Assembly (NCBI GenBank): GCA_963845275.1
Contig: CAWJRR010000002.1
Span: 204,901-268,900, forward strand
Source of the DNA: Candidatus Bathyarchaeota archaeon
GTDB taxonomy: Archaea; Thermoproteota; Bathyarchaeia; 40CM-2-53-6
Length of the DNA: 64,000 nt
Direction: 5' to 3'
Positions 11,972 through 40,846 of the stretch are shown here, in pieces. The notes under the pieces are model-generated. The model had not been told where the DNA came from and searched no databases. It saw only the letters and a list, made by a program, of their open reading frames with translations. The translations under genes were made by a program, and so were the position numbers. The stretch's first letter is position 1; each line of letters opens with the position of its first letter.

Positions 11972-12117
11972 GCCGGGGTAGCCTAGCTAGGTAAGGCGAC
12001 AGAGCCCCTCAGCATTAAGATGAGGGACGTTGAACCTCGAGATCGATTTAGAAAACTGGGCCAAGAAAGCTGTTGGTCCTCTGGGCCTCGTGGGTTCAAA
12101 TCCCACCCCCGGCGCCA
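11972..12117 (+). tRNA. Intron-containing tRNA with encoded CCA; best model is type II tRNA-Ser(CGA) with two introns
   Basis: The acceptor GCCGGGG pairs with CCCCGGC, followed by discriminator G and CCA. D arm GCCT/AGGC; T arm GTGGG-TTCAAAT-CCCAC; long variable arm GGTCC-TCT-GGGCC. Removing 12004-12035 (32 nt) and about 12045-12070 (26 nt) gives the anticodon arm ACAGA-CTCGAGA-TCTGT and an 88-nt mature tRNA. Confidence 0.75.
12092..12117 (+). repeat. attL core: last 26 nt of the tRNA, repeated exactly at 40821-40846
   Basis: GGGTTCAAATCCCACCCCCGGCGCCA is read at both positions. The palindrome TTACTAGTAA lies at 12120-12129. Confidence 0.8.
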
Positions 12118-12169
12118 ATTTACTAGTAACCCTAATTAGGGGCACCAACCCCAGTTATGCTAGGTCCCT

Positions 12170-12697
12170 ATGGGAAAGAGCAGGGCCATCAACGAAAGGT
12201 ACGTGTACGCATACTTACCCTCCGTAGAGATGGTCCGGGACTGGAAAGTTAAGGCGAAGAAGAGCGGCGTCTCTATTTCACAATTCGTCTATGAACATGT
12301 GACAAACTCGTTGCGGCAGGAGGAGGGGGAGGAGAGCTACAAGCCTAGAGCCGAGCTGATCGAAGACCTCCGCAAGAAGGATGAGGCGATAGAGAAACTT
12401 AACCGGGAAAACGAGATCATCAAGCTGGCGTTGGAGAGGGTTGAGACAGAGCTTCGTAGGTATCGTTCTGAACCTTTCCTTCAAGAAAGATTTCAGGGTG
12501 TAAGAAAGTACGATCGACAGCTGATTGAACTTCTCAAGAAAGGGCAGGACGTGGATTCTGATCATCTCCTACGCCTCCTCAGAATCAGTCCGAAGGAGAC
12601 GGATCTGGTCAAAGCGGTCAGTAACCAGTTGGAGAACCTAGAAGCCTATGGTCTCGTGAAGAAAACTCGTCGGGGTTGGAGGTGGGTTGGTGAATGA
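12170..12697 (+). CDS. DNA-binding protein: ribbon-helix-helix N-terminus, coiled coil, winged-helix C-terminus (candidate excisionase/regulator)
   Basis: RHH-like YVYAYLPSVEMVRDWKVKAKKSGVSISQFVYEHV; a charged coiled-coil middle; a C-terminal LENLEAYGLVKKTRRGWRWV wing. The stop overlaps the integrase start (ATGA). Confidence 0.45.
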   Translation: MGKSRAINERYVYAYLPSVEMVRDWKVKAKKSGVSISQFVYEHVTNSLRQEEGEESYKPRAELIEDLRKKDEAIEKLNRENEIIKLALERVETELRRYRSEPFLQERFQGVRKYDRQLIELLKKGQDVDSDHLLRLLRISPKETDLVKAVSNQLENLEAYGLVKKTRRGWRWVGE

Positions 12698-13647
12698 GCC
12701 AGCAAACCCTAGTTGAATTACCTGCAGCTGGTAGGCTGGTGGATTTGTTTGTGCAGGATTGTCGGGACAGGGAGATGACGGAGGATTCGATTCAGCATTA
12801 CAGGTCAGTTGTGATGCATTTCTTCGAATTCCTCGATAAGCGAGACATCTTGCCTCGCCAGGTCGATAAGCAGGTTTTCATAGAGTACCTGCGGTATAGA
12901 AGATCGGAAGGCGTAGGCCAGAAAACTTTAGAGAACAACTTCACTGCACTTGCATCCTTCTACGACTACCTAGTCTTCCAAGAGTACATGGGGCAGAATC
13001 CTGTGACTGGAGTTCGGAAACGTTACCTACGTCGTTACAAAAGTGAAAACGACGTGGACGCTGAATCGCCTCGGAAACTCATCAGCATCGAAGAGATGAG
13101 CCTACTAGTCAATTCCGTACTGGACACGAGGGATAAGGGGATGCTTACCCTGTGGGCTAAAACGGGGGTTAGGCGTGGAGAGTTGATCGCCATGGACATA
13201 ACCGACATCGACTGGGTGGAACAGTCAATAACTCTGAAAAAGTTCAAGAAAAGAAGCGGCCGAATAGCATTCTTCGACGATGAAACCTCCAGAGTGCTTA
13301 AGCGCTGGGTAAACCAGCGTCAGATGTTAAACCCGTCCACCCCGGCTTTGTTTATCGGCGAGCACGGAGGGCGTCTGATGAGACACGGCGTCAACCACGC
13401 AGTTGCCAAGTACGCTGAGAGAGTTGGTCTCCATGATCCAAAATCTTCGCGCCTGGAAGATCACTTCTCACCACATTGTTTCCGTCACTGGTTCACGACA
13501 CACCTAAGGCGTGCCGGCATGGATCGGGAGTTCATCAAGGCACTTCGTGGAGACCGGAGGAGAGAAGCCATAGACATCTACGATCGAATCGATAAACAGG
13601 AGCTCCGTAGAGCCTACTTAGCATATATTCCACAATTGGGGCTCTGA
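12694..13647 (+). CDS. Tyrosine recombinase / phage-type integrase
   Basis: It has an N-terminal SAM-like core-binding region and catalytic motifs TGVRRGEL, HCFRHWFTTHLRRAG and AIDIYDRI (Tyr). It lies next to the tRNA. Confidence 0.85.
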   Translation: MSQQTLVELPAAGRLVDLFVQDCRDREMTEDSIQHYRSVVMHFFEFLDKRDILPRQVDKQVFIEYLRYRRSEGVGQKTLENNFTALASFYDYLVFQEYMGQNPVTGVRKRYLRRYKSENDVDAESPRKLISIEEMSLLVNSVLDTRDKGMLTLWAKTGVRRGELIAMDITDIDWVEQSITLKKFKKRSGRIAFFDDETSRVLKRWVNQRQMLNPSTPALFIGEHGGRLMRHGVNHAVAKYAERVGLHDPKSSRLEDHFSPHCFRHWFTTHLRRAGMDREFIKALRGDRRREAIDIYDRIDKQELRRAYLAYIPQLGL

Positions 13648-13670
13648 CGCATAATCACACACAAATCAGA

Positions 13671-13694
13671 GTTCAAATCTGGTTGCCCGCACCA
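13671..13694 (+). other. Orphan 3' end of a different tRNA (T loop + T stem 3' strand + acceptor 3' strand + ACCA)
   Basis: GTTCAAATCTGGTTGCCCGCACCA has exact 7+5+7+1+3 tRNA 3'-half spacing. The upstream sequence cannot form the 5' half. Confidence 0.55.
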
Positions 13695-14874: not shown

Positions 14875-15183
14875 TCAACTCCTTCTGACGTTCTTGTTAC
14901 CAGAAGAAGTAACTACACATTCTCCAGAAGCATTGTTGTCCCACTGAAGCGGCCTCAGATTAGAAATGTTATTGTTGTCAGGATTTCCGTCTACGTGATG
15001 TACTTCCCATCCATAATCGGAATCCCGACTTCCATATCTAGTTCTGTGAATCCAAGCCGTACACTCATCTTTTCGCCACGCATCTTCGTCGATACCCGTA
15101 ACAACCGCTCCTTTGTTCCAAACTGCTTGAATCTCTTCAGGTGACCAAGTCTTCCTAGCCTCAGCCAAATCTCTGGCCCTCAC
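14875..15183 (-). CDS. Small HNH endonuclease
   Basis: GWEVHHVDGNPDNNNISNLRPLQWDNN (H-N-N/H motif). It lies 10 nt upstream of the GIY-YIG gene on the same strand. Confidence 0.65.
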   Translation of the reverse strand: MRARDLAEARKTWSPEEIQAVWNKGAVVTGIDEDAWRKDECTAWIHRTRYGSRDSDYGWEVHHVDGNPDNNNISNLRPLQWDNNASGECVVTSSGNKNVRRS

Positions 15184-15418: not shown

Positions 15419-16993
15419 GTGCCTTTGCGGGGTAGCGAAGATACGTCAGAGAATGAGAAAATGGTTCAGCATGTAATGTTACCTAGAAAAGTAACACGAG
15501 AAGAATTGAATTCACTTGTAGACAAAGCTGCAGATTTGATCAGAACTGCTGTGGATTACAAGTTCATTCTTGTTTTGTTGTTCTTGAAGAGAATCAATGA
15601 CCTTTGGAAAGCTGAGAAACGGCAGTACAAGCAGAGACTGGTGAAAGAGGCAGATTTGTCCGAGAAGGAAGCCGAAGAACAGAGCGAGAAACTTGAGTAC
15701 ACTTTCAAGATTCCGAAACAGTTCCTTTGGGACGAGATAACCAAAGACGTCAAGACTCTGCCAGAAAAACTTGCAACAGCAATAGGTGAAATTGCAAAAC
15801 TGAACACAGAACTTCAGGGTGTCATCAATAGGGTCGACTTCCTAGAATTTGCTAGGAATCAAGAGAACCGGGACCTCTTGCGACAATTGGTTGAGCTTTT
15901 CAATAGATACGATTTGGCTGGCGAGGAAGTTTCCCCAGACGTGCTCGGAGATGCATACGAGCACATACTCATGAAATTTGCACCCGACCGAGCAAAGGAG
16001 GGCGAGATTTACACCCCCAGAGAAGTCATCAAACTGATGGTCGAGATTCTTGATCCCAAACCTGGCGAGAAAGTGTATGACCCATGTTGTGGTTCCGGCG
16101 GTATGCTGATAATTTCGTACTTGCACGTGCACGACAAGCTCGGAGAAAAAGAAGCCAGGAAACTGTTCCTGTACGGGCAGGAGAGAAATCCAGAAATTTA
16201 CGCTGTCGGCGAAATGAACCTACTGCTTCATGACATCAAGAACGCTAATCTGGCGAACGGTGACACACTGGAGAGTCCGAGATTCAGGGACAATGGCAAG
16301 CTAGAGCAGTTCGAGGTAGTTATCGCAAATATCCCTTGGAATCAAGATGGTTACAACGAGGGAAGGCTCAAAGAAGCTAATTTCCGTGAGAGGTTCACTC
16401 TTGGTTTTCCTCCTCAAAATAGCGCCGATTGGGCCTGGATTCAACACATGCTTGCCTCGGCAAAAGAGAAAGGCAGGATTGCAGTCGTAGTTGACAACGG
16501 CTGCCTTTTCAGAGGAGGACAGGAGAAGAGTGTCAGAAGCAAGATTGTAGGAAAAGACTGGATTGAATGCGTTATCGTTTTGCCAGAAAAGCTCTTTTAC
16601 AATACGGGTGCCCCAGGAGCCATTATCGTCTTCAATAAGAACAAGCCCAAAGAGAGAGATAACAAGATACTCTTCATCAACGCTTCGAACGAGTATGTTA
16701 CACATCCATCAGTTAGAAGATTGAACGCTCTATCATCAGACAACATAGGAAAGATCGTAAGCGTCTATCAGAAGTTCTCTGCGGATCCTGGTTTCTCCAT
16801 AGCAGTGGAAATGAAAGAGATTAGCAAGAATGACTGCAATCTGAATGTGTCACTGTACGTAATGCCAATTGAAGAGGCAGAGAGGATTAGCATTTTCCAA
16901 GTCTATTCAGAGTTGAAGAAGCTGGAAGCCGACAGAGAGAAGATCAACGCACAGCTAGAAGAGGTGTTGGTTCAAATAAAAGAGATTGAGTGA
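15419..16993 (+). CDS. hsdM: Type I restriction-modification system, DNA methyltransferase subunit M
   Basis: HsdM N-terminal helical domain, AdoMet motif DPCCGSGGML, catalytic motif IV variant ANIPW. The likely true start is the ATG at 15461. Confidence 0.9.
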   Translation: MPLRGSEDTSENEKMVQHVMLPRKVTREELNSLVDKAADLIRTAVDYKFILVLLFLKRINDLWKAEKRQYKQRLVKEADLSEKEAEEQSEKLEYTFKIPKQFLWDEITKDVKTLPEKLATAIGEIAKLNTELQGVINRVDFLEFARNQENRDLLRQLVELFNRYDLAGEEVSPDVLGDAYEHILMKFAPDRAKEGEIYTPREVIKLMVEILDPKPGEKVYDPCCGSGGMLIISYLHVHDKLGEKEARKLFLYGQERNPEIYAVGEMNLLLHDIKNANLANGDTLESPRFRDNGKLEQFEVVIANIPWNQDGYNEGRLKEANFRERFTLGFPPQNSADWAWIQHMLASAKEKGRIAVVVDNGCLFRGGQEKSVRSKIVGKDWIECVIVLPEKLFYNTGAPGAIIVFNKNKPKERDNKILFINASNEYVTHPSVRRLNALSSDNIGKIVSVYQKFSADPGFSIAVEMKEISKNDCNLNVSLYVMPIEEAERISIFQVYSELKKLEADREKINAQLEEVLVQIKEIE

Positions 16994-17576
16994 CATGGTG
17001 CAGACTGTTTTTCTTGATACCGGCGTGATCTTAGACTATCTTGAAAATAGACACCAAGAAGTCAGAGATATAATTGCTCAACTCATGCTTCTTCACAAGA
17101 AAGCCAGAATCGTAGTAGCAACCTCAGTCTTCAACATCGCTGAGGTGATTGACAAGGAGTTCGAGATTCATTTCGTTGGTTGGTGTTTGAATGAGAGAAT
17201 GTCGTACGACGAGACGGTAAACAGACTGAGGAGTGACCCTAAGCTGGTCAAAGAAGTCTCGGAGAAGAATCAGAAGGCAGTGGAAAAGAGAATAAATGAT
17301 TTCGTTTTCAAGAATCAGATAACTGTGCTGTCGCTTTCTGCTGAATCAGAGCAGTACGAGGAGCAGTATGAGGAACTCTATACACTAATCTACGAACGCC
17401 AACTGAGATCGCAAGACGCATTAATTATCGCAACAGCGCTAACCAACAAGGTAACCTACTTTGTGTCTAATGACTCGGACCTCATCAGGAAAATCGGAGA
17501 AATGCTCGACAGTTACAACCTGAGGGACGAGGGTCTGCGCAAGTCGTTCCGTAACAACGTGCTAGAGGCGGTCTGA
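16986..17576 (+). CDS. PIN-domain (predicted RNase) protein embedded in the R-M operon
   Basis: Acidic PIN residues are in order: FLDTGVILDY, NIAEVIDKE, QDALIIATAL, FVSNDSDL. It overlaps the hsdM stop by 8 nt and ends 2 nt before hsdS. Confidence 0.6.
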   Translation: MSDMVQTVFLDTGVILDYLENRHQEVRDIIAQLMLLHKKARIVVATSVFNIAEVIDKEFEIHFVGWCLNERMSYDETVNRLRSDPKLVKEVSEKNQKAVEKRINDFVFKNQITVLSLSAESEQYEEQYEELYTLIYERQLRSQDALIIATALTNKVTYFVSNDSDLIRKIGEMLDSYNLRDEGLRKSFRNNVLEAV

Positions 17577-17578
17577 AG

Positions 17579-18859
17579 ATGGAAGAAAACATGGTCTACA
17601 GGGAGAAGGAGTTCAGCGATAGTGAGATTGGGAAAATCCCTAGGGACTGGGACTCTGCCAGACTGCAGACAATGGGAGGATTCCAATATGGAATTACTGC
17701 TTCAGCCATTGAAGAAGATACGGGCACTAAACTCCTAAGAATTACCGACATAAAGAACGGTGGAATCAACTGGGAAGAAATGCCAAATTGCAAGATTAGA
17801 CCAGCAGAGCTCAGGAGATATGAAATCTCCGTTGGAGACGTACTGTTCGCACGAATAGGCGCGACTACAGGGAAAACCTGCTACATAGACAAATCAGTGA
17901 AGGCGGTCTTCGGTTCTTATCTCATAAGATTTCTGCCGAAAACTGACGTTGACACCAAGTTCCTGTACTTCTTCGCCCAGTCAAAGCTATACTGGGACCA
18001 GGTTAATCGCAAGAAAGAGGGGCAACTGAAAAAAGGGCTGAACATCGCAACTTTGGGTAGCATGATTCTTCCGAGACCTCCTTTCCAAGAACAGCACAAA
18101 ATCGCAGCGATCCTCATGATTATTGATGGAGCTATTCAGAAGACCAACGAAATCATAGCGAAAACTCGACTCCTCAAGAAAGGCCTGATGCAGCAGCTCC
18201 TAACCAAAGGAATAGGGCACAAGGATTTCAAGTATAGTGAAGAGGTTGGCGCTGATATCCCGAAAGAGTGGAAGGTAGTTAGCCTTGGAGACGTGACGAT
18301 CATCCGGTATGGATTAGGACGGCCCCCAGAATCCGATGAGAATGGAGTTCCAATGATACGGGCAACGAACATAAAGCGAGGTGCCATCGTTGAAACGGGT
18401 CTTTTCAGGGTGAAACGTTCGGCTATTCCGAAGTCTCGCAATCCCTTCCTTCGAACAGGGGATGTTATCGTGGTCAGGAGTGGAGCTTACACAGGGGACA
18501 TAGCTCGTGTTACAGAGAAATGGGAGGGTGCAATTGCTGGGTATGATCTGATTCTTTCGCCTACAAAGAGGACGATCAACTCGGTCTATCTGGCGAACTA
18601 TCTCCTTGGCTCAAGAGTTCAAACGTACTTCTCGCGGCTCAGAGTTCGTGCAGCTCAGCCACACTTAAACTCAGATCAGGTTTCCCGTGTCCTCATTCCG
18701 CTTCCTTCACTTACTGAACAGGAACAGATTGCCAGGACTCTCTCCGTAGTTGACAAGAAACTCGAAATTGAAAGGAATGAAAAGGCAAACTTACAAGAAA
18801 TCAAACAGGCACTTATGGATTTGCTGCTTACGGGAAAAATCAGGATTAAGGTAGATTGA
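17579..18859 (+). CDS. hsdS: Type I R-M specificity subunit S
   Basis: Two target-recognition halves, each followed by a conserved helical spacer (PPFQEQHKIAAIL... and LPSLTEQEQIARTL...). Confidence 0.9.
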   Translation: MEENMVYREKEFSDSEIGKIPRDWDSARLQTMGGFQYGITASAIEEDTGTKLLRITDIKNGGINWEEMPNCKIRPAELRRYEISVGDVLFARIGATTGKTCYIDKSVKAVFGSYLIRFLPKTDVDTKFLYFFAQSKLYWDQVNRKKEGQLKKGLNIATLGSMILPRPPFQEQHKIAAILMIIDGAIQKTNEIIAKTRLLKKGLMQQLLTKGIGHKDFKYSEEVGADIPKEWKVVSLGDVTIIRYGLGRPPESDENGVPMIRATNIKRGAIVETGLFRVKRSAIPKSRNPFLRTGDVIVVRSGAYTGDIARVTEKWEGAIAGYDLILSPTKRTINSVYLANYLLGSRVQTYFSRLRVRAAQPHLNSDQVSRVLIPLPSLTEQEQIARTLSVVDKKLEIERNEKANLQEIKQALMDLLLTGKIRIKVD

Positions 18860-21800
18860 ATGACCTATAGTGAGAAGGGCACAGTCGAAGATTTCATCAT
18901 TCAAGAACTCAAGAAGCTGGGATGGAAGTACTTAACTCAAAAGGAAATAGAGGCAAAACGAAAGGATAGGCTTGAGGAACCGCTTGTTCTGGAGAACCTC
19001 AGAGAGTCAGTTAGAAAGCTCAATCCCGACATAAAGTTCACCGATGCTGATCTTGATTTTGTAGCTGTCTCGCTGAGAACGATACCATCGAATCTCGAAG
19101 GAATCAGAAGGGTTCTTGACATTTTCAGAAATGGCTTGGTTGTCCCTATACAGAAGGAGAACAAGGAGAAAGTCATCAGACTATTCGACCCTGAAAACGT
19201 CGATAAGAACGAATTCGTTGTAACGAATCAATTCAAACTCGAAGGCCCGAACAGGAACATCAGAGCGGACATTATTCTTCTTGTCAATGGTATCCCCCTA
19301 GTCTGCATCGAATGCAAGAGTCCGACCGGAGAGAGTGTCGATTGGACGACAGCCTATATACAGATAAAGAGATATGAGCGAGAGGCTCCTGAGCTTTTCA
19401 AGTATGTTCAATATTCGATAGCAACCGACGGAATGAAAACGAAGTACTTCCCCAATGGCTTCAACGAGGAGAACAAGGATTTTCTTAGCGAATGGAAAGA
19501 TCCGTATCCATTCAAAGTCGAGGAATTCAAAGAAGACATTCTGAAAATCACGATATACGGTCTCTTGTCAAAGTCGAATCTCCTCGACTTGATTGAGAAT
19601 TTCACGTTCATCAGGAAAGAGATAGACAAGTCTACGAAGATAATGACTCGGTACATGCAGTTCAGAGCATCGGAGAAGATCTATCGAAGAGTAATCAACA
19701 CTCTAGGGAAGAACGAAAACAGCAAGTTCGGCTTGATATGGCACTGGCAAGGCTCCGGCAAAACCTACACGATGGCATTCTCTGCGTGGAAGCTCTACAA
19801 CTCGCCTAAAGCCGAACGGCCTAGCATTTTCGTGCTTGTTGACAGAAAAAACCTTGAAGAACAGATTGAGAAGGATTTTGGCTTCATTGAAGTTCCGATA
19901 GAGAAGATTGAGCACGTAGATGGCTTGATCGAGGTTTTGAAATGGGGCAAGGAAGGAAAAAGAGGGATCTTTCTAGTAACCATTGAAAAGTTCAGACCGA
20001 AGGAATTTGCGAAGCTGAAAAAAGAAAGCGGCAAGATAGAAATCAAAAGGGAGAACGTGATTGTTCTCGCCGACGAGGTGCATAGAACCCAATACGGAAA
20101 ATTCAGAACGGTGATGAAAAGTGTTTTCAAGAAAGCCTTCATCTTCGGTTTTACGGGCACACCGCTCTCTAAACCAGAAAGGAACACGTTCCAGAAGTTC
20201 TGTCCGAGAGGAGAACTCTACCTCGATAGGTATTCGATGCTCGACGTGTTGAAGGATGGATTCACTGTCGAGCTCTCTTATGAGCCGAAACTCCCGGATT
20301 ATCACCTTAACGAGAAAGAGTATCGACAGTTCGTGAAATTCGAGGAGGAAGAGCTGAAGACACGATCGAAAGCAGAACAGAAGGAAATCAGGAAAAAGGT
20401 CAAGGTAATCGTCGCCTTTGTCAAGAAAAAGGAGCGGATAGAGGCGATCACCGAAGACATAGCTCATCACTTCAAGGACATAGTGGAGCCCACCGGCCTT
20501 AAGGCAATGGTTGTAACCATAGACAGAGATGCATGCATCCGATACAAGAATGCATTGGACCAAATTCTGCCGCCGAATTGTTCAGAGATTGTGATGACGT
20601 TCAATGCGAACGATAAGGAACCAATTAGAACCTACTTTGACAAGCTATCTAAGAAGTACGATTCTAAAGATCAAAAAGAAATTCATGACAAGATCATTGA
20701 ACGCTTCAAGGAAGCCAAAGAACTCAAGATTTTGATTGTAACTGACATGCTGATCACGGGATTTGACGCTCCTGTCCTTTGGACGATGTACCTCGACAAA
20801 CCATTGAAAGAGCACAGAGTTCTTCAGGCCATAGCACGAACGAACAGGCCGTATCTGAACAAGAAGTTTGGTTTGATTATCGATTATATTGGCATCCTTG
20901 CAGAGATGCAGAAGGCGTTCCAGAAATTCGAAGCAAGCGAAGCAAAAGACATCCGTGTCGTTATAAGACAGCTCGACAAGGAGAAAGACGAATTCAGAGA
21001 GCTGCTCCAGAAGGCTCTGAGAATTTTCCAGTCTGTGAAGAAGGAGGATACACGAGAAAGTCTAGAGGCTGCGATGAATGTTCTTGTGAATCCCGACATA
21101 GGCAAGCAATTTGAAATTACCATGAGAGCGCTCATGAAGTCGTACGAAATGCTCAGTGGAGACGAGTTTCTTGGGCCGTATCTTTCTGACTACACATGGC
21201 TCGCCAAAGTGCTTGTTGCCTATAACAAGCGGTTCAAGAAGAAAGATGTAGACGAGCTGAAAATAATAGAACTCTCAAAGAAGACATTCCAACTCATACA
21301 ACAAACAATCGACGTCAAAGAGATCGAGGATACATATCCGACTTTGAGTATTGATGCAAAATACGTTGAAGCCCTCAAGAAGTCTAAGCCTAATACAATC
21401 GGCGCTGCGATAGATATCATTACTAACATTCAGCACGAATCGAGAACGCATTCTAGCTCACCGTTCTTCCTCAACCTGAGTAGAGAAGTCGAAAGAACCT
21501 ATGAAGAACTGAGAACAAGAAAGATCGACACCCAAGAAGCGGTACGCAAGGCACTGGATTTCTCCGAAAAAATCGCGGAGTGGAAGAGGGAAGAGGAGGA
21601 AATAGGAAAAGAGAAGTATCCTCTATATGAAGCGCTGAAGACCGTCCTTCCCGACATCGAAAAGCAAAAGGCAGTGAAATTCATCACGCGTCTTATTGAC
21701 CATCTGAAAAAGTTGGATTTGCTCTTTGAAGGATGGCAACTGCAGAGGGATGTCCGCCGAAAGACATTGACTGAAACAAGACTGTTAATCTTGTCAGAGT

Positions 21801-30556: not shown

Positions 30557-30832
30557 GTCAATCCTGACCACAGCCTTCACGCTTTAGCAGATCGTTCGTT
30601 GGGGTAACAATATCTGAAGCAAATTCACAGTATGCTAAAGTATTCGATATAGCACCGATTGATTTTGGCTGCGATCAGAGTGGTTGACATCGGGAATATG
30701 AACGGACTGACTGGGGTTACTCAAATCGGCTTGTAGATATGGTCTGAGCGATGTCTAATTATCTTTGATCGATTTTGAAGAGGTATTCGGTTGTTGGCAT
30801 CTATAAGCATCCGTAACCGGAGCAACTTTTGG

Positions 30833-31636: not shown

Positions 31637-31777
31637 GCCGTTTCCGCATTTGGCGTTCTTAATACTTTCTCGCCAGTTTCATGCCAGACTATGAGAGGCG
31701 GCTAGTCTTTCTGTACTCATTAAGTGATCTAAAGACTCAAAAGACGCGTTTTCGCCAAGCGTATGAGACAGTGAGTA

Positions 31778-32293
31778 GTGATGCAGTTATTGGAAGATCG
31801 TTTTGAAAAACTGTGTATCTACAATTTTTCAATAGACTATCCTTCGATTTGCGATAGAATAGAATTTAACCCAAAATCCAAACGCGATGGTGGAGATCTA
31901 GTCTTCCACCTTCCTGACAAGGAAAAAATCTTCCTAACTTGGGGAAAGTTGGACAACGCTAGAAAGAAGTTTCAAACATTGGAGGAATACGCTGAATATA
32001 GCATCAATGAGGTAAGAAGAGGCGCTAAAGGCGGATTATTTGAAAGAACTCCGCCGCGCTCACTTAGAGTAAATTCGCATAACGCAGTTTATAATCAAAC
32101 TAGTCTTTCTGAACCCTCTTTAGGATTTTTGAAGGCTCACCGAAAATCAACTAAGCGCGGAACATACTCGATACATCTTTATTGTGACCAGTCCTGCAGA
32201 TTCTTCGTGGTCTATGAGTTGCTCTCCCGCGAAACAGAGATGAGCTCTGAAGAGACTTTCATGAAAATGGTGAACTCATTCAAATGTCACTAA
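31778..32293 (+). CDS. Hypothetical protein
   Basis: 171-aa ORF, no recognised motif. Confidence 0.35.
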   Translation: MMQLLEDRFEKLCIYNFSIDYPSICDRIEFNPKSKRDGGDLVFHLPDKEKIFLTWGKLDNARKKFQTLEEYAEYSINEVRRGAKGGLFERTPPRSLRVNSHNAVYNQTSLSEPSLGFLKAHRKSTKRGTYSIHLYCDQSCRFFVVYELLSRETEMSSEETFMKMVNSFKCH

Positions 32294-32353
32294 ACCATGA
32301 ACCCTTCTGATCTTTCTCGGCTAATCTAAACGTCGGGGGAGCCGCGTTCCAAG

Positions 32354-33283
32354 TCAGCCTGATGTCAGAATATAACCCTTGACTCTTCTAGATTCGAGAC
32401 TGATAACCGCTCCTCGCAGAATACCCTCACCATATTCGCTTCCGGGGTTTACACACAACGTATTGCCGATCATGATGGTCCCTCGGGATTCGTGAATGTG
32501 TCCGAAAAGCCCCACAAGCGGTTGATATTTCTCAATGGCATTTCGGACTGCCTTGCTGCCTACAGAGACGAATTCAGCCTTCGCGATCAGTTCTTTCGTC
32601 ATTTTGGGTGCTTCGTCAAGCCTTGATTCGTACGGAGGAGCGTGAAAATTAAAGATGGCATTCTTCATGTCTTTAACCCGTGAAGCCAAGTCGCTGATGA
32701 TCTCCGTCAGGTGCTCCTCGGAAGTGTCCCGGGGTAGATGCCAAGGGGTCATATTGGCATAACCCGTACAAATCATTTCATGGCCGTCAACATCGACGAG
32801 TTGGTTATGGCAGTAGACTAATGATTCTGACGTTTTAAGTACGTCATCAATTTCGTACGGATCGTCATTTCCTGCAGTGACGAAGACCTTTTTTTGGGGA
32901 AGTTTTTCCTTGGTGAGCGCAGCCCAATCCCTTAGTCGGTTCGAGGCCAGCTTAATGAACAGTTCCTGAGTCTTAGCTTTGTCAGATGTGATCTTCGCCC
33001 ATTCATCGGGAGATGTTGCGAAATCATAATAGCCTAGATCTCTTATGAGTTTCAAGAGTTTCGTAATTTCCGTTGGTGATTTTGCTGAGTAGTCTCTGCT
33101 CAAGAAGTTAGTAGTGAGACTACCGTCACCCATCTTCATCAAAGGGATTACCGCTTTTCCGGTAATGTCCCCACCAAGAATCATTTTATCTGCTTTGTAG
33201 AAGCTTGCCGCCCCGATAAATTTCAGAAATGTAATCTCAGAACCGTGCATATCTGTTGAAAAGAATATTCTGGTCACTCCCAA
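32354..33283 (-). CDS. Calcineurin-like metallophosphoesterase
   Basis: Motifs in order: FFSTDMHGS, LGGDITGK, TAGNDDP, NFHAPP, GHIHE. Confidence 0.75.
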   Translation of the reverse strand: MGVTRIFFSTDMHGSEITFLKFIGAASFYKADKMILGGDITGKAVIPLMKMGDGSLTTNFLSRDYSAKSPTEITKLLKLIRDLGYYDFATSPDEWAKITSDKAKTQELFIKLASNRLRDWAALTKEKLPQKKVFVTAGNDDPYEIDDVLKTSESLVYCHNQLVDVDGHEMICTGYANMTPWHLPRDTSEEHLTEIISDLASRVKDMKNAIFNFHAPPYESRLDEAPKMTKELIAKAEFVSVGSKAVRNAIEKYQPLVGLFGHIHESRGTIMIGNTLCVNPGSEYGEGILRGAVISLESRRVKGYILTSG

Positions 33284-34275: not shown

Positions 34276-35919
34276 TTGCACAAGCGGGGAATGCCCGTGT
34301 CGGAGTTTTGTATTTTGAAACCAGATGATATTTTCGTTAGGAAAGCAAGCGGTATGGTTAGAGGATACAACCTACTCGACATGTTCGTTTTTAATATGAA
34401 CGGACTCGCCCCATCAGCTATGATGTCTGGCATGGTGGCCATAACTGCAGCATATTATCCGGCAGCTAATGTTTTATGGACGCTGTTATTGGCCTCGCCC
34501 TTCGTATTCTGCTTCGCCTATTGCTACGCAGCTCTGTCGGCCGCGATGCCTCGTAGTGGTGGAGACTACGTGTTTGCCAGTCGCATAATCAATCCCGTCG
34601 TTGGATTGGCGGGCGGAGTAGTCTACAATCTGCCTGTTCATATGCTTGCTGATGCTGGTTTTGCAATCTATTTCTTCACGTACGTCATCCCTATGACGCT
34701 GGTTCTCTCATTCCCAGGCAACCCAACCGTCCAAGGAATGGTCAATATGATGTCGAATAATTGGGTGATCTTCGGTCTTGGAACTGTGGTCACTATTTTG
34801 GCTGTTGGTACTGCAATACTTGGGGCAAAAGTCTGGAAAGCCGTCATGTGGATTATTTTCATCTTTGGGATGATCTCAGTCGTTCTTATAATAGGCATTC
34901 TTGCGAGCACTAACACTACTGGTTTCATCCAAGCGTTCAACGCATTTGCAGCCAAGTATGGGACATCATATGATGGAATTATTCAGACGGCAACAGCGAA
35001 AGGATGGCAACCGACTCCTGATAGTATCTTCATCAGTATAGCGCCGATGGTTATTCTGTACACGTACGTTTTCACAGCATGGCCAGTCTGGATGTCGAGC
35101 GAAGTCAAGTCAGCAGAGAAATCTGTCCCGTTCGCAACATTCGCTTCAATTATTCTAGCTCAGATTATAGGAATTGTAATTGCTGCACTCTACGAAAACG
35201 TGATTCCAAAGGACTTCATGAGTGCCGCTAGTTATCTTGCGTACAACGCGCCCAGCGGGTCTTATCCCCTTCCCTGGAATCCCGAGATCATAACAATAAT
35301 CAGCTCAATCGCGCACACCCCAATCGTAACGCTCCTCATCGGTATGGGAATAACCATGTTCAATCTATCATTCATTTTCGGTGATATCGTTATAACGTCC
35401 AGGACATTGTTCTACTGGTCGTTCGACAGACTCATCCCGAAGAAGTTTGCTTCTCTTACGACCAGATGGAGGACGCCCGCTTTTGCGCTGATTTTCTATG
35501 GCATCATCGTTGAAATAGCGTTGGCTATCGCACTCTCATTTAATGTTCTATACGTGCTGTCAAACTGCCAAGTGCTCATCGTAATCAGCTTCACTCCTGC
35601 CCAATTCGCCGCTCTCTTCCTAGCATATAGGGGACGGAGCATCTGGGAGAAGGCACCAGGCTGGGTTCAGAAGAAGATCGCTGGCATTCCCTTACTCGCG
35701 GTTATTGGCGGTGTGTCTTCAGCATTCCAAGTCGTGATGATCGTATTGGCGACGTTAGTCTTTCCACTCTTCGGGGGACCCATAACCCTAGCTGGAGTTG
35801 CATTCATGTTGTTCTGGATACTCGTAGCGATTCCCTGGTACTACTTTGCGAGGTATTACCACCTGAAGAAGGAGGGAATGGATATTGCGTGGGCGTTTAA
35901 GTCCGTTCCGCCCGCGTAA
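34276..35919 (+). CDS. APC-superfamily amino acid/polyamine permease
   Basis: 547 aa with about 12-13 hydrophobic helices and an SGGDYVF motif in the first helices. The start codon is uncertain. Confidence 0.75.
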   Translation: MHKRGMPVSEFCILKPDDIFVRKASGMVRGYNLLDMFVFNMNGLAPSAMMSGMVAITAAYYPAANVLWTLLLASPFVFCFAYCYAALSAAMPRSGGDYVFASRIINPVVGLAGGVVYNLPVHMLADAGFAIYFFTYVIPMTLVLSFPGNPTVQGMVNMMSNNWVIFGLGTVVTILAVGTAILGAKVWKAVMWIIFIFGMISVVLIIGILASTNTTGFIQAFNAFAAKYGTSYDGIIQTATAKGWQPTPDSIFISIAPMVILYTYVFTAWPVWMSSEVKSAEKSVPFATFASIILAQIIGIVIAALYENVIPKDFMSAASYLAYNAPSGSYPLPWNPEIITIISSIAHTPIVTLLIGMGITMFNLSFIFGDIVITSRTLFYWSFDRLIPKKFASLTTRWRTPAFALIFYGIIVEIALAIALSFNVLYVLSNCQVLIVISFTPAQFAALFLAYRGRSIWEKAPGWVQKKIAGIPLLAVIGGVSSAFQVVMIVLATLVFPLFGGPITLAGVAFMLFWILVAIPWYYFARYYHLKKEGMDIAWAFKSVPPA

Positions 35920-35958
35920 CCCCTCACATTTTGACTGCATTTTTGTTGTTCAATAAAG

Positions 35959-37665
35959 GTGAGCTGTGTGGTCGAAGCGTCGGGTGCGCGTATAGTGGCG
36001 GAAGCGCTGAGAGCAGAAGGAGTTAAGTATGTTTTTGGTGTTCCAGGAGGGCAGAGCTGCGATGTTCTGTATGACGGGCTCTACGATGTTCCTGATGTTA
36101 AACCCATCCTTGTAAGGCATGAAGAAGCTGGAGTTTTCATGGCTTATGCATACGCCAGGCTGACGGGTGAGCCAGGAGTGTGTACTGGGACGGTCGGACC
36201 TGGGGCTCAGCATCTCGTCAGTGGAATAGCGGAGGCTTGGTCCGGTTGTATGCCAATAGTTGCACTTGCTTCCCAAGTTTCAACCGAGATCGAATGGATG
36301 GGAGCCCTACAGGATTTCCCTCAACAGACAGCAATATTTGCTCCTTTCACGAAGTGGAGTGTGCGCATTCCAAGAACTGATCGTATTGCATGGTATATGC
36401 GGCGAGCTTTTCAAACAGCGACCACGGGCAAGCCGGGCCCAGTTTTTATGGAAATTCCAGATGACGTTGGTCTCCGTAAGATCGAAATGCCTGCGTATGT
36501 GCGTTCAATTCGCCCACTTCGAGTGAGACCTTCAAGAGAGCAGGTGAAGGAAGTTGGAGAACTCATAATTAAGGCGGAGAGACCTGTCATTGTCGCTGGT
36601 GGAGGCGTCTACTTATCCAGAGCTTTTAAAGAGTTAAGGAATTTCGCTGAGATGCTTGCAATACCTGTGCTGACCAGTGCGGGCGGGAAGGGTTCGATCC
36701 AAGAGGATCACCCTCTATGGGCTGGTTGCTTGGGCCTGTATCGAACGGATATAGGAAAGAAAGTGTGGGAAGAAGCCGACTTGGTCATAGGCGTCGGAAC
36801 TAGGTTTGAGGAAATGGAATCTGCGGCATGGAAGTGGTTCCCCAAGAGCGCGAAATTGATACAGATCGATATCGATCCAACTGAAATAGCAAGAAACTGG
36901 ATACCAACCGCGTCAATGGTCGGTGATGCGAAGTTGGCATTGGAAGACTTGATTGAATACATTTCCGAGAGAATCAAAAAGGTCAGCTATCAAGAAGCTC
37001 CTAGAGTTAAGGAACTCATCACGGCCAAGAACGAATTTGAAGACGGCCTCAGAGAAGAATTGAAGAAAGGGAAAGTAACAAAGGTCCTTCAGATAATGAA
37101 GGAGGCTAGGAAGATCTTTGACAAAGACGCTATTCTTGTTCACGAAAATGGCTCCTTGGATATATGGTCATATTCCTATTTTCCCGTTCTTAGTACTGGG
37201 ATGGATGTGATGCCGGCAGGTCAGACATGTATGGGTTTCGGGGTGGCAGCAGTAATAGGTGCGAAGCTGGCCATGCCAGAGAGACAGGCTGTATGCGTAA
37301 CTGGAGATGGCGCTTTCCAGATGATGATGGACAATCTTTCAGTGGCAACGCAATACAAAGCGCCCGCTACGTGGATCATACTCGATAACTCCTGCTTAGG
37401 ATGGATACGATGGTTGCAACACTTGATCTATAGAGACAGATACATATGCGCGGACTTTGAGGTGCAACCAGATTTTGCAAAGATAGCTGAAGCCCACGGC
37501 TGTTTCGGAGAGAAGATTGAGAAACCCCAAGATATCAAGATAGCGTTGGAAAATGCGGTAAAAGCAAACGAAGAAAACGTGCCAGCGGTACTGGACTTTG
37601 TGGTGGAACCGTTTGATCATTATCGCAGCTTCGTAGACTTTCACAAGTTCCAATTAGGGGGTTAA
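35959..37665 (+). CDS. Thiamine-diphosphate-dependent enzyme, acetolactate synthase large-subunit-like family
   Basis: N-terminal PYR domain (GVKYVFGVPGG...HEEAGVFMA...G), central domain, and the ThDP-binding motif GDGAFQMMMDNLSVA...ILDN. Confidence 0.8.
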   Translation: MSCVVEASGARIVAEALRAEGVKYVFGVPGGQSCDVLYDGLYDVPDVKPILVRHEEAGVFMAYAYARLTGEPGVCTGTVGPGAQHLVSGIAEAWSGCMPIVALASQVSTEIEWMGALQDFPQQTAIFAPFTKWSVRIPRTDRIAWYMRRAFQTATTGKPGPVFMEIPDDVGLRKIEMPAYVRSIRPLRVRPSREQVKEVGELIIKAERPVIVAGGGVYLSRAFKELRNFAEMLAIPVLTSAGGKGSIQEDHPLWAGCLGLYRTDIGKKVWEEADLVIGVGTRFEEMESAAWKWFPKSAKLIQIDIDPTEIARNWIPTASMVGDAKLALEDLIEYISERIKKVSYQEAPRVKELITAKNEFEDGLREELKKGKVTKVLQIMKEARKIFDKDAILVHENGSLDIWSYSYFPVLSTGMDVMPAGQTCMGFGVAAVIGAKLAMPERQAVCVTGDGAFQMMMDNLSVATQYKAPATWIILDNSCLGWIRWLQHLIYRDRYICADFEVQPDFAKIAEAHGCFGEKIEKPQDIKIALENAVKANEENVPAVLDFVVEPFDHYRSFVDFHKFQLGG

Positions 37666-37774
37666 TGGTTTGTCTTCTCGCATTTGCATTCAATCATCGG
37701 CCTCAGGGAAAGACAGACGACGCCATAGTCGTTAGGCTTAGTTATGGAAGTGTTGACGTAAAACGAGTTGACGA

Positions 37775-38809
37775 GTGGCATTTTCGTGTATCGGCAGTCT
37801 ATTGGAGTTTTCTTCCATGAAGAAATTCGTTAATGATGTCGCTCATGTAGTTGAAGAAGAACTACAAGGAATGGTGCTTCTGTATCCCAATGTTCTGCGT
37901 CGTCTAGTCGGGACCAATGTTATCGTAAGGCGTGATTCCCCCATAATTGGGAAAGTGGCCCTAGTAAGTGGCGGGGGTAGTGGTCACGAACCCCTTCATT
38001 GCGGATATGTAGGTAGAGGTATGCTTGACGGAGCAATTGCTGGCGAAATATTCACGTCACCCCCACCAAATCAAATCTATGATGCCATAAGAGAAGTGCA
38101 CGGAGGGAAGGGAGTTTTGCTTATCGTTAAGAATTATGCGGGGGATATCATGAACTTCAAATTGGCCGAGGAATTGGCAACAGACAACAGCATTGAGATA
38201 AAGCACGTCATTATTCACGATGATATCGCATTAACACCGGTCGAGAGAAGACGAGGAGTCGCCGGAACGATACTATGTCACAAAATTGCTGGCGCCAAAG
38301 CGGAAGAGGGCGCGGATCTTGTTGATGTCGAGAGACTGGCTCAAAGGGTCGTTTCGAACGTAAGGTCTATGGGAGTCGCATTGACATCTTGTACGCTTCT
38401 GCACGTCGGCAAGCCAATGTTTGCCCTTCAAGATGATGAAATGGAACTCGGGATTGGCATCCATGGTGAGCGCGGAGTTCAAAGGACCAAGATGGTCACA
38501 GCTGATCAAATTGCTGAAGTTTTGGTGAGCAGCGTTTCTGATGATTTGGATTTGAAAAAAGGAGACGAGGTTGTAACAATGATTAATGGAATGGGGGGTA
38601 CTTCCCTAATGGAATTATTGATCATATCACGTAAAGCTCTGCAGCTTCTCGGAGCTCGTGAAATCAAGAACTTCAAGTCATTAATAGGAAACTTTGTTAC
38701 TTCTCTTGACATGGCCGGCGCTTCGCTCACGCTACTCCGAGTGGATGATGAAATGAAAGCGATGCTTCTAGCGCCTCAATTCACTCCAAACTTTCCGATG
38801 TTAATCTAA
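37775..38809 (+). CDS. dhaK: Dihydroxyacetone kinase, DhaK subunit
   Basis: KKFVND..., VALVSGGGSGHEPLHCGYVGRGMLDGA, GVLLIVKNYAGD. The likely true start is the ATG at 37817. Confidence 0.88.
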   Translation: MAFSCIGSLLEFSSMKKFVNDVAHVVEEELQGMVLLYPNVLRRLVGTNVIVRRDSPIIGKVALVSGGGSGHEPLHCGYVGRGMLDGAIAGEIFTSPPPNQIYDAIREVHGGKGVLLIVKNYAGDIMNFKLAEELATDNSIEIKHVIIHDDIALTPVERRRGVAGTILCHKIAGAKAEEGADLVDVERLAQRVVSNVRSMGVALTSCTLLHVGKPMFALQDDEMELGIGIHGERGVQRTKMVTADQIAEVLVSSVSDDLDLKKGDEVVTMINGMGGTSLMELLIISRKALQLLGAREIKNFKSLIGNFVTSLDMAGASLTLLRVDDEMKAMLLAPQFTPNFPMLI

Positions 38810-38828
38810 CTTAATCTTTGCCTACGAG

Positions 38829-39503
38829 TTGGTAAGCATGATTCGAATCATCAGCGCTACTGATGTATGTCTGATAGCCCGTGACATTTCTGCCAATATT
38901 CACGAAAAGGTTGGCTACCTGACTGAGTTGGATTCTCAACTTGGCGACGGAGATCATGGGCTGAATCTGGAGCGCGGCTTCCGCCAGGTTGTTGAACGCT
39001 TAGCTCCAATACAGGAGAGTGACGTAGGGAGTATTCTAGAGATGATTGGCTCGACTCTGCTCAGCTCTGTCGGTGGCGCAACCGGACCTTTGTATGGCAC
39101 CGCGTTCAAGAGAGCGGGACGATCATGCAGAGGCAAGACTGAGATAGGTATCTCAGAAATCACTCAAATATTCGAAGCCGCGGAAGAGGGTATAATGAGT
39201 ATCGGAGGAGCGAAGCCGGGTGACAAAACCATTCTGGATGCGCTTCATCCTGCATCTGAAGCGGCGCGAATAGCAGCCAGGCGCGGTGAGCGCGACCTGG
39301 TTCGCGCTTTCGACGAGATGGTGAGTGCTGCGGAATTGGGACTGGAAGGAACAAAGAGTCTTGTTGCAGTCAAAGGACGAGCAAGCTATATGAAGGAGAG
39401 AGGAATAGGGCACTACGATGTCGGCGCAGCTTCTTTCTGCATAATGCTTAGATCAACCTTGGAGACTTTGAGGCGCATAAATAAGCAAGTCCAGAACTCG
39501 TAG
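38829..39503 (+). CDS. dhaL: Dihydroxyacetone kinase, DhaL (nucleotide-binding) subunit
   Basis: LDSQLGDGDHGLNLERGF, GGATGPLYGTAF, GAKPGDKTILDAL. Confidence 0.85.
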   Translation: MVSMIRIISATDVCLIARDISANIHEKVGYLTELDSQLGDGDHGLNLERGFRQVVERLAPIQESDVGSILEMIGSTLLSSVGGATGPLYGTAFKRAGRSCRGKTEIGISEITQIFEAAEEGIMSIGGAKPGDKTILDALHPASEAARIAARRGERDLVRAFDEMVSAAELGLEGTKSLVAVKGRASYMKERGIGHYDVGAASFCIMLRSTLETLRRINKQVQNS

Positions 39504-39504
39504 G

Positions 39505-39900
39505 GTATTGTATGATGGAGAACGTCTTTCGTCCAAACCGATGAGCCAAGTCCGTACACGACCTTGTTACTCTTCTCAATTACGTCGTCGTAACTGTTGA
39601 ATTTCAGCACTGTGAAGACGGGGCCGAATATTTCTTGCATCACTATAGACGAGTCGTGGTTCTCTGTTTGAATAACCGTTGGTTGAATGTAGTACCCGTC
39701 CTCGTGATCAGGAATTTCGGGGCGTTCAGCTGCCTATGTAGCTCTCAACATTGTTCCTGTGTGCGGCTGAGATCATTGGTCTTAGGTCAGTCATATTGTC
39801 TTGGGTGTCACCAATCACGACCTTGCTGAGCTCTTCGTTAAGTCTCCTCGTGAACTTGTCTACGACAGATTCGTGGACATAATACCTCGTCGAGTTAGCG
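39505..39900 (-). pseudogene. Aldehyde dehydrogenase remnant (middle to C-terminal part only, frameshifted)
   Basis: Minus-strand pieces in two frames: RYYVHESVVDKFTRRLNEELSKVVIGDTQDNMTDLRPMISAAHRNNVESYI and GYYIQPTVIQTENHDSSIVMQEIFGPVFTVLKFNSYDDVIEKSNKVVYGLGSSVWTKD. No N-terminal half is present. Confidence 0.7.
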
Positions 39901-40681
39901 CAGTCTTGGGAGAAAGCACATGGCCACCATCCTCTTCGATCGCATCAATTACCTCACGAATGGGGGAGGTGTGAAAAAGACCGTTCATCCTAGCCCCTAT
40001 GCCTTGAACTAGGTTCGGTTCTTGTGTGATTACAGTGCCTGCACCATCGCAGACGGTAACAGCCGCATCCACACCTTTCCTCTCTAATGCGTACATCATC
40101 ATTTCTGAAGCCCCAAAATGAATGACTACATCACATCGTTGAAGCTCTCTTCTAGTTGTAAAATGGCCGAAACGGTTAATCTTCGATCCTACACCCGCCG
40201 CTATCATTTGCCTCTTCGATTCAAGGCTGCAGGTCTCAAATCCCTTCATGCAATCATACACAGAACTCGATAAAGGACAGTAATCCATCCGGGTATCCGC
40301 AACCTTAATGACCTCCCTGTTCGAAACTGCCACCAGACCACCACACATTCTTGTCACATGAAGGTCTTCTGGCAAGCCGCATCTCTCATCCCTAATTGCG
40401 TTCAGAAACACTTTCACTTCGACGCCACCCTTCATCTCAGACATCCATACCGAAGCCGCAGAAGGGTTATTCGACAAACTATTCAAACATACGTTCGGTA
40501 GCGTTGCAAATGAAGTCGAAGAGCAAAGGCTCGGATCGGTGACATGAGGCAGTCGTTCAACATCTCTAAATGCGGCACAAATATTGAAGAAAACTTGAGA
40601 ATGAAGCACTCCTTCAACTCTGCCGCGCATCTCACAGCATTTTCGAGGATATTTCGAATCACGCGTAACTTGCAAATTCAA
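39860..40681 (-). CDS. DUF2099 (methanogenesis-marker-8-like) family protein, probably truncated at the 3' end
   Basis: YCPL..., VCDGAGTVITQEPNLVQGIGARMNGLFHTSPIREVIDAIEE matches my recollection of DUF2099. The C-terminus runs into the ALDH remnant in another frame. Confidence 0.45.
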   Translation of the reverse strand: MNLQVTRDSKYPRKCCEMRGRVEGVLHSQVFFNICAAFRDVERLPHVTDPSLCSSTSFATLPNVCLNSLSNNPSAASVWMSEMKGGVEVKVFLNAIRDERCGLPEDLHVTRMCGGLVAVSNREVIKVADTRMDYCPLSSSVYDCMKGFETCSLESKRQMIAAGVGSKINRFGHFTTRRELQRCDVVIHFGASEMMMYALERKGVDAAVTVCDGAGTVITQEPNLVQGIGARMNGLFHTSPIREVIDAIEEDGGHVLSPKTALTRRGIMSTNLS

Positions 40682-40820
40682 TCAAAGTCCGTATATCAGG
40701 TCCTTCACATTCTAAAGACGAAAACTCAAAAAGGAGTCACTACACCCTCGTAATCGCCCTAGTGCTCACCGATACCTTCCTTGGATCTCTGCAATCATGG
40801 TGGGAGTTACTAGTAAACTG

Positions 40821-40846
40821 GGGTTCAAATCCCACCCCCGGCGCCA
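40821..40846 (+). repeat. attR core: orphan copy of the tRNA 3' end
   Basis: It is identical to 12092-12117 over 26 nt. The upstream sequence cannot form the 5' tRNA half. TTACTAGTAA lies at 40807-40816. Confidence 0.8.

Follow-up and report, generated by a model that had tools for sequence, protein, structure and literature searches.

A 28.7-kb integrated element at a bathyarchaeal tRNA-Pro gene and the 10-base palindromes at its ends

What occupies the DNA behind the only tRNA gene detected in a 64,000-nt stretch of a Candidatus Bathyarchaeota genome, and what is the function of the short palindromes at its two borders? The stretch (contig CAWJRR010000002.1 of assembly GCA_963845275.1, positions 204,901 to 268,900) is referred to below as the window, and positions are those of the whole stretch unless another contig is named. 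A first-pass annotation, made from the letters alone, had proposed an island of about 28.7 kb integrated at the tRNA. The answer favored here, with a probability of about 75% that includes a model for the end motifs, is that positions 12118-40820 form one cryptic-type integrative element, inserted site-specifically by a tyrosine recombinase into the 3' part of tRNA-Pro(UGG).

The borders are defined by two attachment (att) cores. The 26-bp repeat GGGTTCAAATCCCACCCCCGGCGCCA has exact copies only at 12092-12117 (attL core, + strand) and 40821-40846 (attR core, + strand); no further copy is found in the window with up to three mismatches, and none in 100 shuffles. The left copy extends from the T-stem through the CCA end and comprises the T-stem, T-loop, acceptor 3' strand, discriminator and CCA of the integration target, tRNA-Pro(TGG), which is located at 11972..12117 (+) and contains a 67-nt intron. 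Intron-aware ARAGORN recovers this gene as the single tRNA of the whole window and assigns the intron to the non-canonical position 34/35; default ARAGORN and an Rfam scan at gathering thresholds report no tRNA anywhere in it. Because only one tRNA is detected, no 5' tRNA half precedes 40821. The right copy corresponds to the original chromosomal 3' end of tRNA-Pro, and the 3' end at the left border now comes from the element. Next to each core, on its island side, lies the 10-base palindrome TTACTAGTAA, which is exact only at 12120-12129 and 40807-40816; two other matches in the window, with one mismatch each, are located elsewhere. At the left junction 2 nt (AT) separate the CCA end from the palindrome, which begins 16 nt past the T-loop AATCC, and at the right junction 4 nt (ACTG) separate the palindrome from the repeat, so that it stops 11 nt ahead of AATCC. 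Three claims of the first-pass annotation are borne out at this level: the exact 26-bp repeats are unique to their two sites by mismatch search and shuffling, the palindrome lies 2 nt and 4 nt inside the island when the sequence is read, and the right repeat belongs to no tRNA.

Supporting this interpretation, the uninterrupted site is present in a strain-level relative. L166, a 57-kb ENA contig, was reached via a homologue of the BNR-repeat gene in the left flank. Positions 2912-11667 of its reverse complement are collinear with window 3282-12117 at 86% identity, up to the orthologous tRNA-Pro (66-nt intron). From this tRNA 3' end the sequence passes directly to window 40821-40868, made up of the core and the adjoining 22 nt of the right flank; 215 unrelated nt follow, and synteny is then restored over window 43203-48791. 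Window 12118-40820 is missing from L166 to the base, with gene order conserved on both sides. Since the intact tRNA-Pro joins the right flank of the window directly in the absence of this segment, L166 shows an empty attB. The comparison with relatives that the earlier annotation had called for therefore upholds the island, and its breakpoints coincide with the repeat. In L166 the tRNA is followed by GAACGATAACCC and the empty site carries no palindrome, which led to rejection of the idea that the motif is part of the host tRNA locus, for example a terminator. These data also make it vanishingly improbable that the repeat is a chance match or an assembly artefact and that L166 has simply lost ordinary chromosome. 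Only the weak compositional contrast of the segment favors that view, whereas zero matches are expected by chance, the L166 breakpoints match the repeat to the base, and family-specific motifs stand at both borders.

The family to which these motifs belong emerges from a scan of species-representative genomes, which yielded 18 loci, and from additional contigs retrieved by exact-protein look-ups. The hosts of the 18 loci are Bathyarchaeia, Nitrososphaera, Methanosarcinales, Methanophagales (ANME-1), Methanothrix and Thermoplasmatota metagenome-assembled genomes (MAGs). Only two genes are common to all related loci (at least 18), one encoding a protein of 175 amino acids (aa) in the window (37-80% identity) and the other the integrase, and the cargo differs. 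A tRNA ends upstream of this module in every related locus with sufficient upstream DNA, and the targets include at least six isotypes (Pro, Ser, Val, Leu, Glu and Arg), several with one or more introns. The tRNAs beside the related elements L005, L007 and L008 are undetected even with intron-aware ARAGORN.

In 18 of 18 distinct elements the left motif, TTACYRGTAN, starts exactly 16 nt past the T-loop AATCY, and positions 1-4, 7 and 9 of this consensus are invariant. The spacer between the tRNA end and the motif is 2 nt, or 4-5 nt where CCA is not encoded, and the longer spacer thereby preserves the register of the motif to the T-loop. An AT-rich, TATA-like box lies 1-3 nt past the motif, and the accessory gene starts 31-65 nt beyond, again in all 18 elements. 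The conserved order is thus a tRNA 3' end, 2 to 5 nt, TTACYRGTAN, a TATA-like box, the 175-aa gene and a XerA-like integrase gene (int). In the window, the spot of the relatives' TATA-like box (ATATAAATAG) is occupied by an AT-centred palindrome, CCCTAATTAGGG, at 12130..12141, and this region is presumed from its sequence to be the promoter of the accessory-gene/int operon. Public assemblies very often break in or at the tRNA or att core just upstream of the module (L001, L009, L010, L013, L169, L173, L176, L181, L182 and L183), and a contig from ERR10755942 with an identical integrase starts inside the att core. Such breaks fit strain heterogeneity, with the island present in some strains and absent from others, or repeat-induced breaks.

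A mirror copy of the motif stands at the far end. The right end is visible in five elements, namely the window, L006 (5.5 kb), L015 (10.1 kb), L008 (8.8 kb) and L168 (8.8 kb), and in all five exactly 11 nt separate the end of the right motif from AATCC (AATCT in L168). Three of them, namely the window, L006 and L015, have a canonical, tRNA-derived right repeat; rebuilt from their ends, attP takes the form motif-N32-motif, where the 32 nt between the motifs (N32) resemble a tRNA from the T-loop to the CCA end; the attL/attR identity is 26, 21 and 18 nt, respectively. The earlier proposal that, on an excised circle, the same palindrome would flank the core on both sides is supported by this reconstruction. 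The number of motifs is accordingly two in attP, one each in attL and attR, and none in attB. For the window element, the predicted attP junction is …GGGAGTTACTAGTAAACTGGGGTTCAAATCCCACCCCCGGCGCCAATTTACTAGTAACCC… and the predicted attB is …CTCGTGGGTTCAAATCCCACCCCCGGCGCCAGAACGATAAC…. In L008 and L168, where the motif is not a perfect palindrome, the left copy TTACCGGTAC read on the opposite strand gives exactly the right copy GTACCGGTAA, and the ends therefore behave as covarying inverted repeats.

The geometry suggests where strand exchange would occur. The identity common to the attL/attR pairs covers N32 positions 11-19 (AAATCCCAC in the window, 12098-12106; one mismatch in L168) and reads AAATCCCnn, and the dyad of N32 falls between positions 16 and 17, at the junction of the T-loop and the T-stem. 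Strand exchange would take place at this junction, in a 6-8 bp overlap at the centre of N32, with two integrase protomers bound on arms of about 12 bp on either side of the overlap. Xer/dif sites have a comparable 11-6-11 layout (PMC8371274). As an overlap and arms of the Xer type fill N32, the 10-bp motifs would be expected just outside the integrase footprint. They are 42 bp apart from centre to centre, or four helical turns, and would therefore lie on the same face of the DNA.

Which protein, then, would recognize the motifs? The first candidate is the product of the accessory gene (12170..12697, +), a 175-aa protein with a ribbon-helix-helix-like (RHH-like) N-terminus, a long coiled coil and a C-terminal winged helix. 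In the AlphaFold (AF2) model, with a predicted local distance difference test (pLDDT) score of 73, two helices (residues 19-32 and 36-50) follow a conserved RxVYxYLPS segment and are succeeded by a 38-residue helix and the winged helix. Foldseek aligns the last ~60 residues to the winged helices of MarR, ArsR, Csa3 and BirA with modest E-values. In lenient Pfam scans of the family, 11 of 27 members match CcdA (RHH fold, sub-threshold) and 5 of 27 weakly match the ArsR helix-turn-helix (HTH_5). On these predictions, support is moderate for the winged helix and weak for the RHH fold. No Pfam family covers the protein; a word index gives 303 homologues, and clustering at 50% leaves 596 representatives, nearly all full length. 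Its DNA-binding segments are highly conserved.

The second candidate is the integrase itself (12694..13647, +), an intact XerA-like tyrosine recombinase of 317 aa that matches PF00589 at 7e-27 and carries SAM-like N-terminal domains. Its start overlaps the end of the 175-aa open reading frame (ORF) by 4 nt in the same orientation. The first-pass annotation had described an integrase and an overlapping RHH/winged-helix gene next to the tRNA; the integrase and the overlap are as described, and the RHH/winged-helix label is a reasonable one, with the unequal degrees of support just given. The integrase has more than 2000 database homologues. According to Pfam and structure comparison it has the two-domain architecture of Xer-type recombinases, without an extra arm-binding domain, and its nearest solved structure is XerA 5hxy. 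The protein is full length and carries all family-invariant residues, including D287, an invariant aspartate (LRGDRRREAIDIY; LRGD) at the position where XerA/XerD have a histidine before the tyrosine nucleophile (LGH); the remaining catalytic positions (R, K, HxxR and Y) align normally. The possibility that it is simply the host XerA was rejected because it scores 159.3 bits against NCBIfam XerA_Arch, below the equivalog cutoff of 220, and because its presence is strain-variable.

One alternative assigns the motifs to the integrase, as an outer extension of core-type sites or as sites for extra protomers, and makes the accessory protein a regulator or directionality factor. The rebuilt attP is indeed an extended imperfect palindrome, the arms next to the motifs in L006 form an inverted repeat at 11 of 13 bases (ATTGGTGCG.../...CGCACCAAT), and the integrase is conserved as much as the motif. 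This reading is nevertheless rather unlikely, as Xer-type monomers span about 11-13 bp beside a 6-8 bp overlap and thereby fill N32, leaving the motifs outside (PMC8371274). In addition, the integrase lacks an arm-binding domain, and a perfect palindrome of 10 bp is better suited to a small dimeric DNA-binding protein. The first-pass annotation had likened the palindromes to recombinase binding sites; their position just outside the expected Xer-type footprint makes the RHH/winged-helix partner no less probable a binder than the recombinase.

A parallel for such a role is provided by the haloarchaeal pleolipovirus SNJ2 (Wang et al. 2018), which has a classical integrase, a tRNA target and a 14-bp core (PMC5861418). 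Its int shares a transcript with overlapping genes located upstream, which encode Orf2, a coiled-coil protein, and Orf3, a MarR-like protein with a winged helix; both stimulate integration and have been proposed to bind arms flanking the core (PMC5861418). The accessory gene of the island is likewise upstream of int, overlapping and co-oriented, and its predicted structure contains coiled-coil and winged-helix parts. It differs in that RHH-like, coiled-coil and winged-helix parts are fused in one polypeptide, and the likeness is one of architecture; neither an inverted repeat nor a palindrome is mentioned for SNJ2 (0 occurrences of either term in PMC5861418). The model proposed here is similar: the accessory protein would bind the two motifs as dimers and assist in assembly of the attP complex. 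Once the element is integrated, the lone left motif, directly upstream of the operon's TATA box, would probably serve as an operator.

The last point leads to a further alternative, in which an RHH/winged-helix autoregulator binds the motifs solely as operators that control transcription of the accessory-gene/int operon, and they have no role in recombination. RHH proteins are typically autorepressors that bind short palindromes, a habit with which this alternative agrees, and the left motif abuts a TATA-like box upstream of the accessory gene in 18/18 elements. What it leaves unexplained is the mirror copy at the far end, which stands 11 nt from AATCC in five elements and covaries with the left copy. 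An exclusive operator role is consequently judged improbable; operator and recombination roles are not mutually exclusive and can coexist.

What class of element results from these features? Since int is intact in the integrated state, with the att core 577 nt upstream of its start, attP lies outside int, as in the classical, non-suicidal type. An SSV-type (suicidal) element was rejected on the same grounds, as int is unsplit and the right border contains no int fragment. A provirus was also considered and rejected, because no virion morphogenesis or packaging genes were found among the island ORFs with Pfam and PHROGs. Comparison of the island ORFs with PADLOC, Pfam, NCBIfam and PHROGs brought up no match to a capsid, terminase or portal protein or to a VirB4/VirD4-like protein, although remote homologues could escape such searches, and none of the unannotated ORFs matched a PHROG family. 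The island is not recognisable as a provirus or as an integrative and conjugative element, and the lack of detectable viral or conjugative genes, and of a casposon or IS-only signature, fits the class of cryptic integrated elements. Neither the integrase nor its partner has a close relative in the phage (50,697 records) or plasmid collections: integrase matches in the phage collection are at most 28% identical, with no haloarchaeal virus among the matches listed, and the partner gives no tblastn match there.

Thaumarchaeal cryptic integrated elements (Krupovic et al. 2019) target tRNA genes, including intron-containing ones, encode integrases of the XerC/XerD family and range from 2.6 to 98 kb; their commonest genes include CopG/RHH proteins and type I restriction-modification (R-M) subunits, and they lack viral or conjugative signature genes (PMC6563490). 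The island shares the type of integration target, the integrase family, RHH-like and type I R-M genes and the lack of viral and conjugative genes with these elements (PMC6563490), and Nitrososphaera loci belong to the family described here. It differs in its Bathyarchaeia-like host and in its 26-bp att, compared with a thaumarchaeal median of 17 bp, and no mention of the end motif, the fixed T-loop register or the 175-aa partner as a conserved module was found in PMC6563490. With pNOB8-type and other classical integrases (Badel et al. 2021, PMC8371274) it has in common an int that remains intact after integration and an attP outside the ORF. Its att of 26 bp, or 18-26 bp in the three canonical pairs, differs from the 40-50 bp of pNOB8 integrases in Sulfolobales (PMC8371274), and SSV-type elements differ in that int is unsplit here. 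Archaeal XerA/dif, which resolves chromosome dimers, provides the closest solved structure, the closest NCBIfam model and the same two-domain architecture; the island integrase, in contrast, scores below the cutoff, resides in a strain-variable island beside a tRNA and has aspartate for histidine before the tyrosine. Bacterial integrases that target the T-loop, such as that of mycobacteriophage Ms6 (PMC1762012), and lambda-type attP sites with accessory-protein sites were also compared; they come from another domain of life, and in place of long arms with multiple sites the present element has two symmetric 10-bp motifs adjoining the core. The island is therefore a classical, non-suicidal tyrosine-integrase element in a tRNA gene, closest to the thaumarchaeal cryptic integrated elements.

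Several observations weigh against this reading or against the motif model that it includes. In L008 and L168 the attL/attR identity is only about 9 nt, around AAATC, and the DNA that follows the overlap at the right end does not continue the 3' part of the left-end tRNA, which means that these two are not simple, canonical attR products. Searches for an excised circle or free attP of this family, covering an IMG/VR scan and at least 120 metagenome loci, found none. At three metagenomic sites with exact 11/16 geometry, in which a tRNA-3'-like core is flanked by motifs (L052, 409-459; L089, minus strand, 115; L139, 3813-3863), no integrase or partner gene is nearby. The RHH label of the 175-aa protein draws on secondary structure and sub-threshold matches only, and variants of the motif show no visible covariation with the DNA-binding segments of this protein. 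Composition hardly separates the island from its surroundings: GC content is 46.4% inside and 48.0% outside, and the tetranucleotide distance is slightly raised (p = 0.03), mostly over the R-M genes. The compositional check suggested in the first-pass annotation thus yields a slight contrast, and neither profile delimits the island. Finally, insertion sequences (IS) and some truncated genes leave present mobility in doubt.

Some of these observations can be given possible explanations. The ends of L008 and L168 suggest recombination between elements at different tRNAs, or later deletions. L008 carries two right-end motifs 500 bp apart (10682 and 11188), with the 3' end of another tRNA after the second (AAATCCCACCCCCGGCGC), and the right-end motif of L168 is at 13397. 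The sites in L052, L089 and L139 could be junctions within tandem arrays, relics, or places used by satellites that lack an integrase. In the IMG/VR scan, TTACTAGTAA-N20-50-TTACTAGTAA gave 26 matches with scattered spacings that represent only chance or iterons; the only match with N32 (L028) was discarded as a 42-bp iteron array in an unrelated contig. The at least 120 loci from a JGI metagenome scan with a degenerate two-gap pattern are mostly chance matches, with no integrase among the loci listed, and small contigs with integrase homologues that were examined for circular forms are all integrated copies or broken at the tRNA.

A more distant counterpart occurs in L184, an IMG/VR contig of a tailed archaeal virus that carries a distant accessory/int module (44% identity for the integrase) between ERF/DNA methylase genes and baseplate genes (Baseplate_J); a FilR1-type regulator is also encoded. 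A perfect 13-bp inverted repeat, GTCCGTAAATCAT-N24-ATGATTTACGGAC (9214-9263), immediately precedes a TATA box and the accessory/int genes. Judged by its sequence, this site resembles an attP of this design before recombination, and nothing in it stands out as a tRNA-like core.

Doubts about mobility are taken furthest by the view that the element is a fixed relic, integrated once and now immobile, whose intact ends merely reflect recent insertion. Consistent with this are two transposase genes, truncated YgjP-like and DUF2099 genes, a host-like composition, a cargo of 28.7 kb compared with 5.5-10 kb in relatives with both ends visible, and the failure to detect a circle. Against it, the att cores are identical over 26 bp and both motifs are perfect, neither int nor the accessory gene is shortened or lacks a family-invariant residue, and a strain-level relative (L166) lacks exactly the island. 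Immobility is a doubtful explanation on this balance, though one of appreciable weight.

The cargo carried by this integrated element begins with a small ORF with an HNH endonuclease domain (14875..15183, -; Pfam), followed by a type I R-M block (15419..22251, +) identified with Pfam and PADLOC (MTase_I, Specificity_I and REase_I). It comprises hsdM (15419-16993, +), a PIN-domain gene (16986-17576, +) that overlaps hsdM by 8 nt and lies between it and hsdS (17579-18859, +), then hsdR (18860-21868, +) and a short YgjP-like fragment (21868-22251, +; Pfam). Two transposase genes follow: a DDE transposase that is ISL3/IS256-like below family cutoffs (24241..25857, +), and an IS6-family transposase (26106-27212, -; NCBIfam IS6, 139.5 bits against a cutoff of 125). 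The latter is accompanied by a 195-aa neighbour (27243-27830, -), and the pair recurs in the closest related element, L168 (8548-10297), at 77% and 53% aa identity. A search of the window for terminal inverted repeats of the two transposase genes gave none that convinced.

Downstream, a miscellaneous block (28577..33283; Pfam) contains an NT5C-domain protein (28577-29728; Pfam), a membrane protein, ORFs without assigned function and a metallophosphoesterase (32354-33283, -; Pfam). A 171-aa helix-turn-helix (HTH) protein is encoded at 33507-34022 (-), within a 727-bp segment enclosed by a 60-bp inverted repeat (33376-33435 and 34163-34222, 90% identity), and this segment could be a small mobile or invertible unit. 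An amino-acid permease, a thiamine pyrophosphate (TPP)-dependent enzyme and the dihydroxyacetone kinase proteins Dak1 and Dak2 (34276..39503, +) precede a DUF2099-like ORF (39860..40681, -), which aligns with the first 147 of 257 profile positions (57%) and is probably truncated. The first-pass annotation had characterized the cargo as defence and mobility genes plus decaying metabolic genes. The defence and mobility genes include the complete type I R-M system and the two transposases. The description of the metabolic genes as decaying is overstated, since the permease, the TPP enzyme, Dak1 and Dak2 cover nearly full Pfam domains, and only the DUF2099, YgjP-like and PIN genes look partial.

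The flanks have features of their own. A second variable segment lies beside the same tRNA, where window 40869-43202 corresponds to positions 11690-11906 of the reverse complement of L166. The window segment contains PNPOx-like, isochorismatase and aldo/keto reductase genes, all three without a counterpart in L166. Exact-protein look-ups of two genes of the right flank returned no record. The 215-nt segment of L166 encodes a 69-aa peptide (…YAFWMRKQGYRPSTIRSCVATLKAV…) with a weak likeness to an integrase N-terminal SAM-like domain (Pfam E = 0.22), and, judging by this likeness, the segment may be a remnant of an older integration at the hotspot. To the left of the tRNA, the BNR/sialidase-like gene at 10620-11540 (-) has an ORF of 305 aa and a database call of 207 aa, whereas its dozens of homologues have about 365 aa; it may be truncated or frameshifted. 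Further left, a giant ORF of 1709 aa (132-5261) contains at least eight tandem copies of a repeat of ~324-336 bp (approximately 990-3750), visible as staggered self-similar matches in the comparison with L166, and its region has the most deviant tetranucleotide composition of the window.

Taken by itself, the island represents routine gene flux at a tRNA gene, with type I R-M genes, transposases and metabolic cargo. Its value lies at the level of the family, in a compact attP architecture and a two-gene module that recur across Bathyarchaeia, Nitrososphaera, methanogen/ANME and Thermoplasmatota genomes. The end motif with its fixed T-loop register, the motif-N32-motif attP and the fused partner as a cross-phylum module were not found in the literature searched, in which the literal motif string appears only inside cloning primers. 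A bolder and quite speculative extension, held to be unlikely, is that the 175-aa protein and the XerA-like integrase form a pan-archaeal modular system in which two dimers of the accessory protein, bound four helical turns apart, would hold between them a 32-bp cassette resembling the 3' end of a tRNA, and swapping the cassette would retarget integration to any tRNA. Retargeting is conceivable because the T-loop sequence in which the crossover would fall is nearly universal and the motifs do not depend on the target. If true, such a system would explain the many tRNA isotypes used by integrases that are 50-85% identical, and would constitute a programmable integration tool for archaea currently without genetics.

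At the level of the family as a whole, the 10-base end palindromes mark a widespread, uncharacterised archaeal integration module, and the motif signature offers a simple means to delimit such elements and to rejoin contigs in fragmented MAGs. The arrangement also provides a testable hypothesis on how an archaeal Xer-like integrase is directed to attP, and it might serve as a site-specific integration cassette in lineages where genetic tools are lacking.

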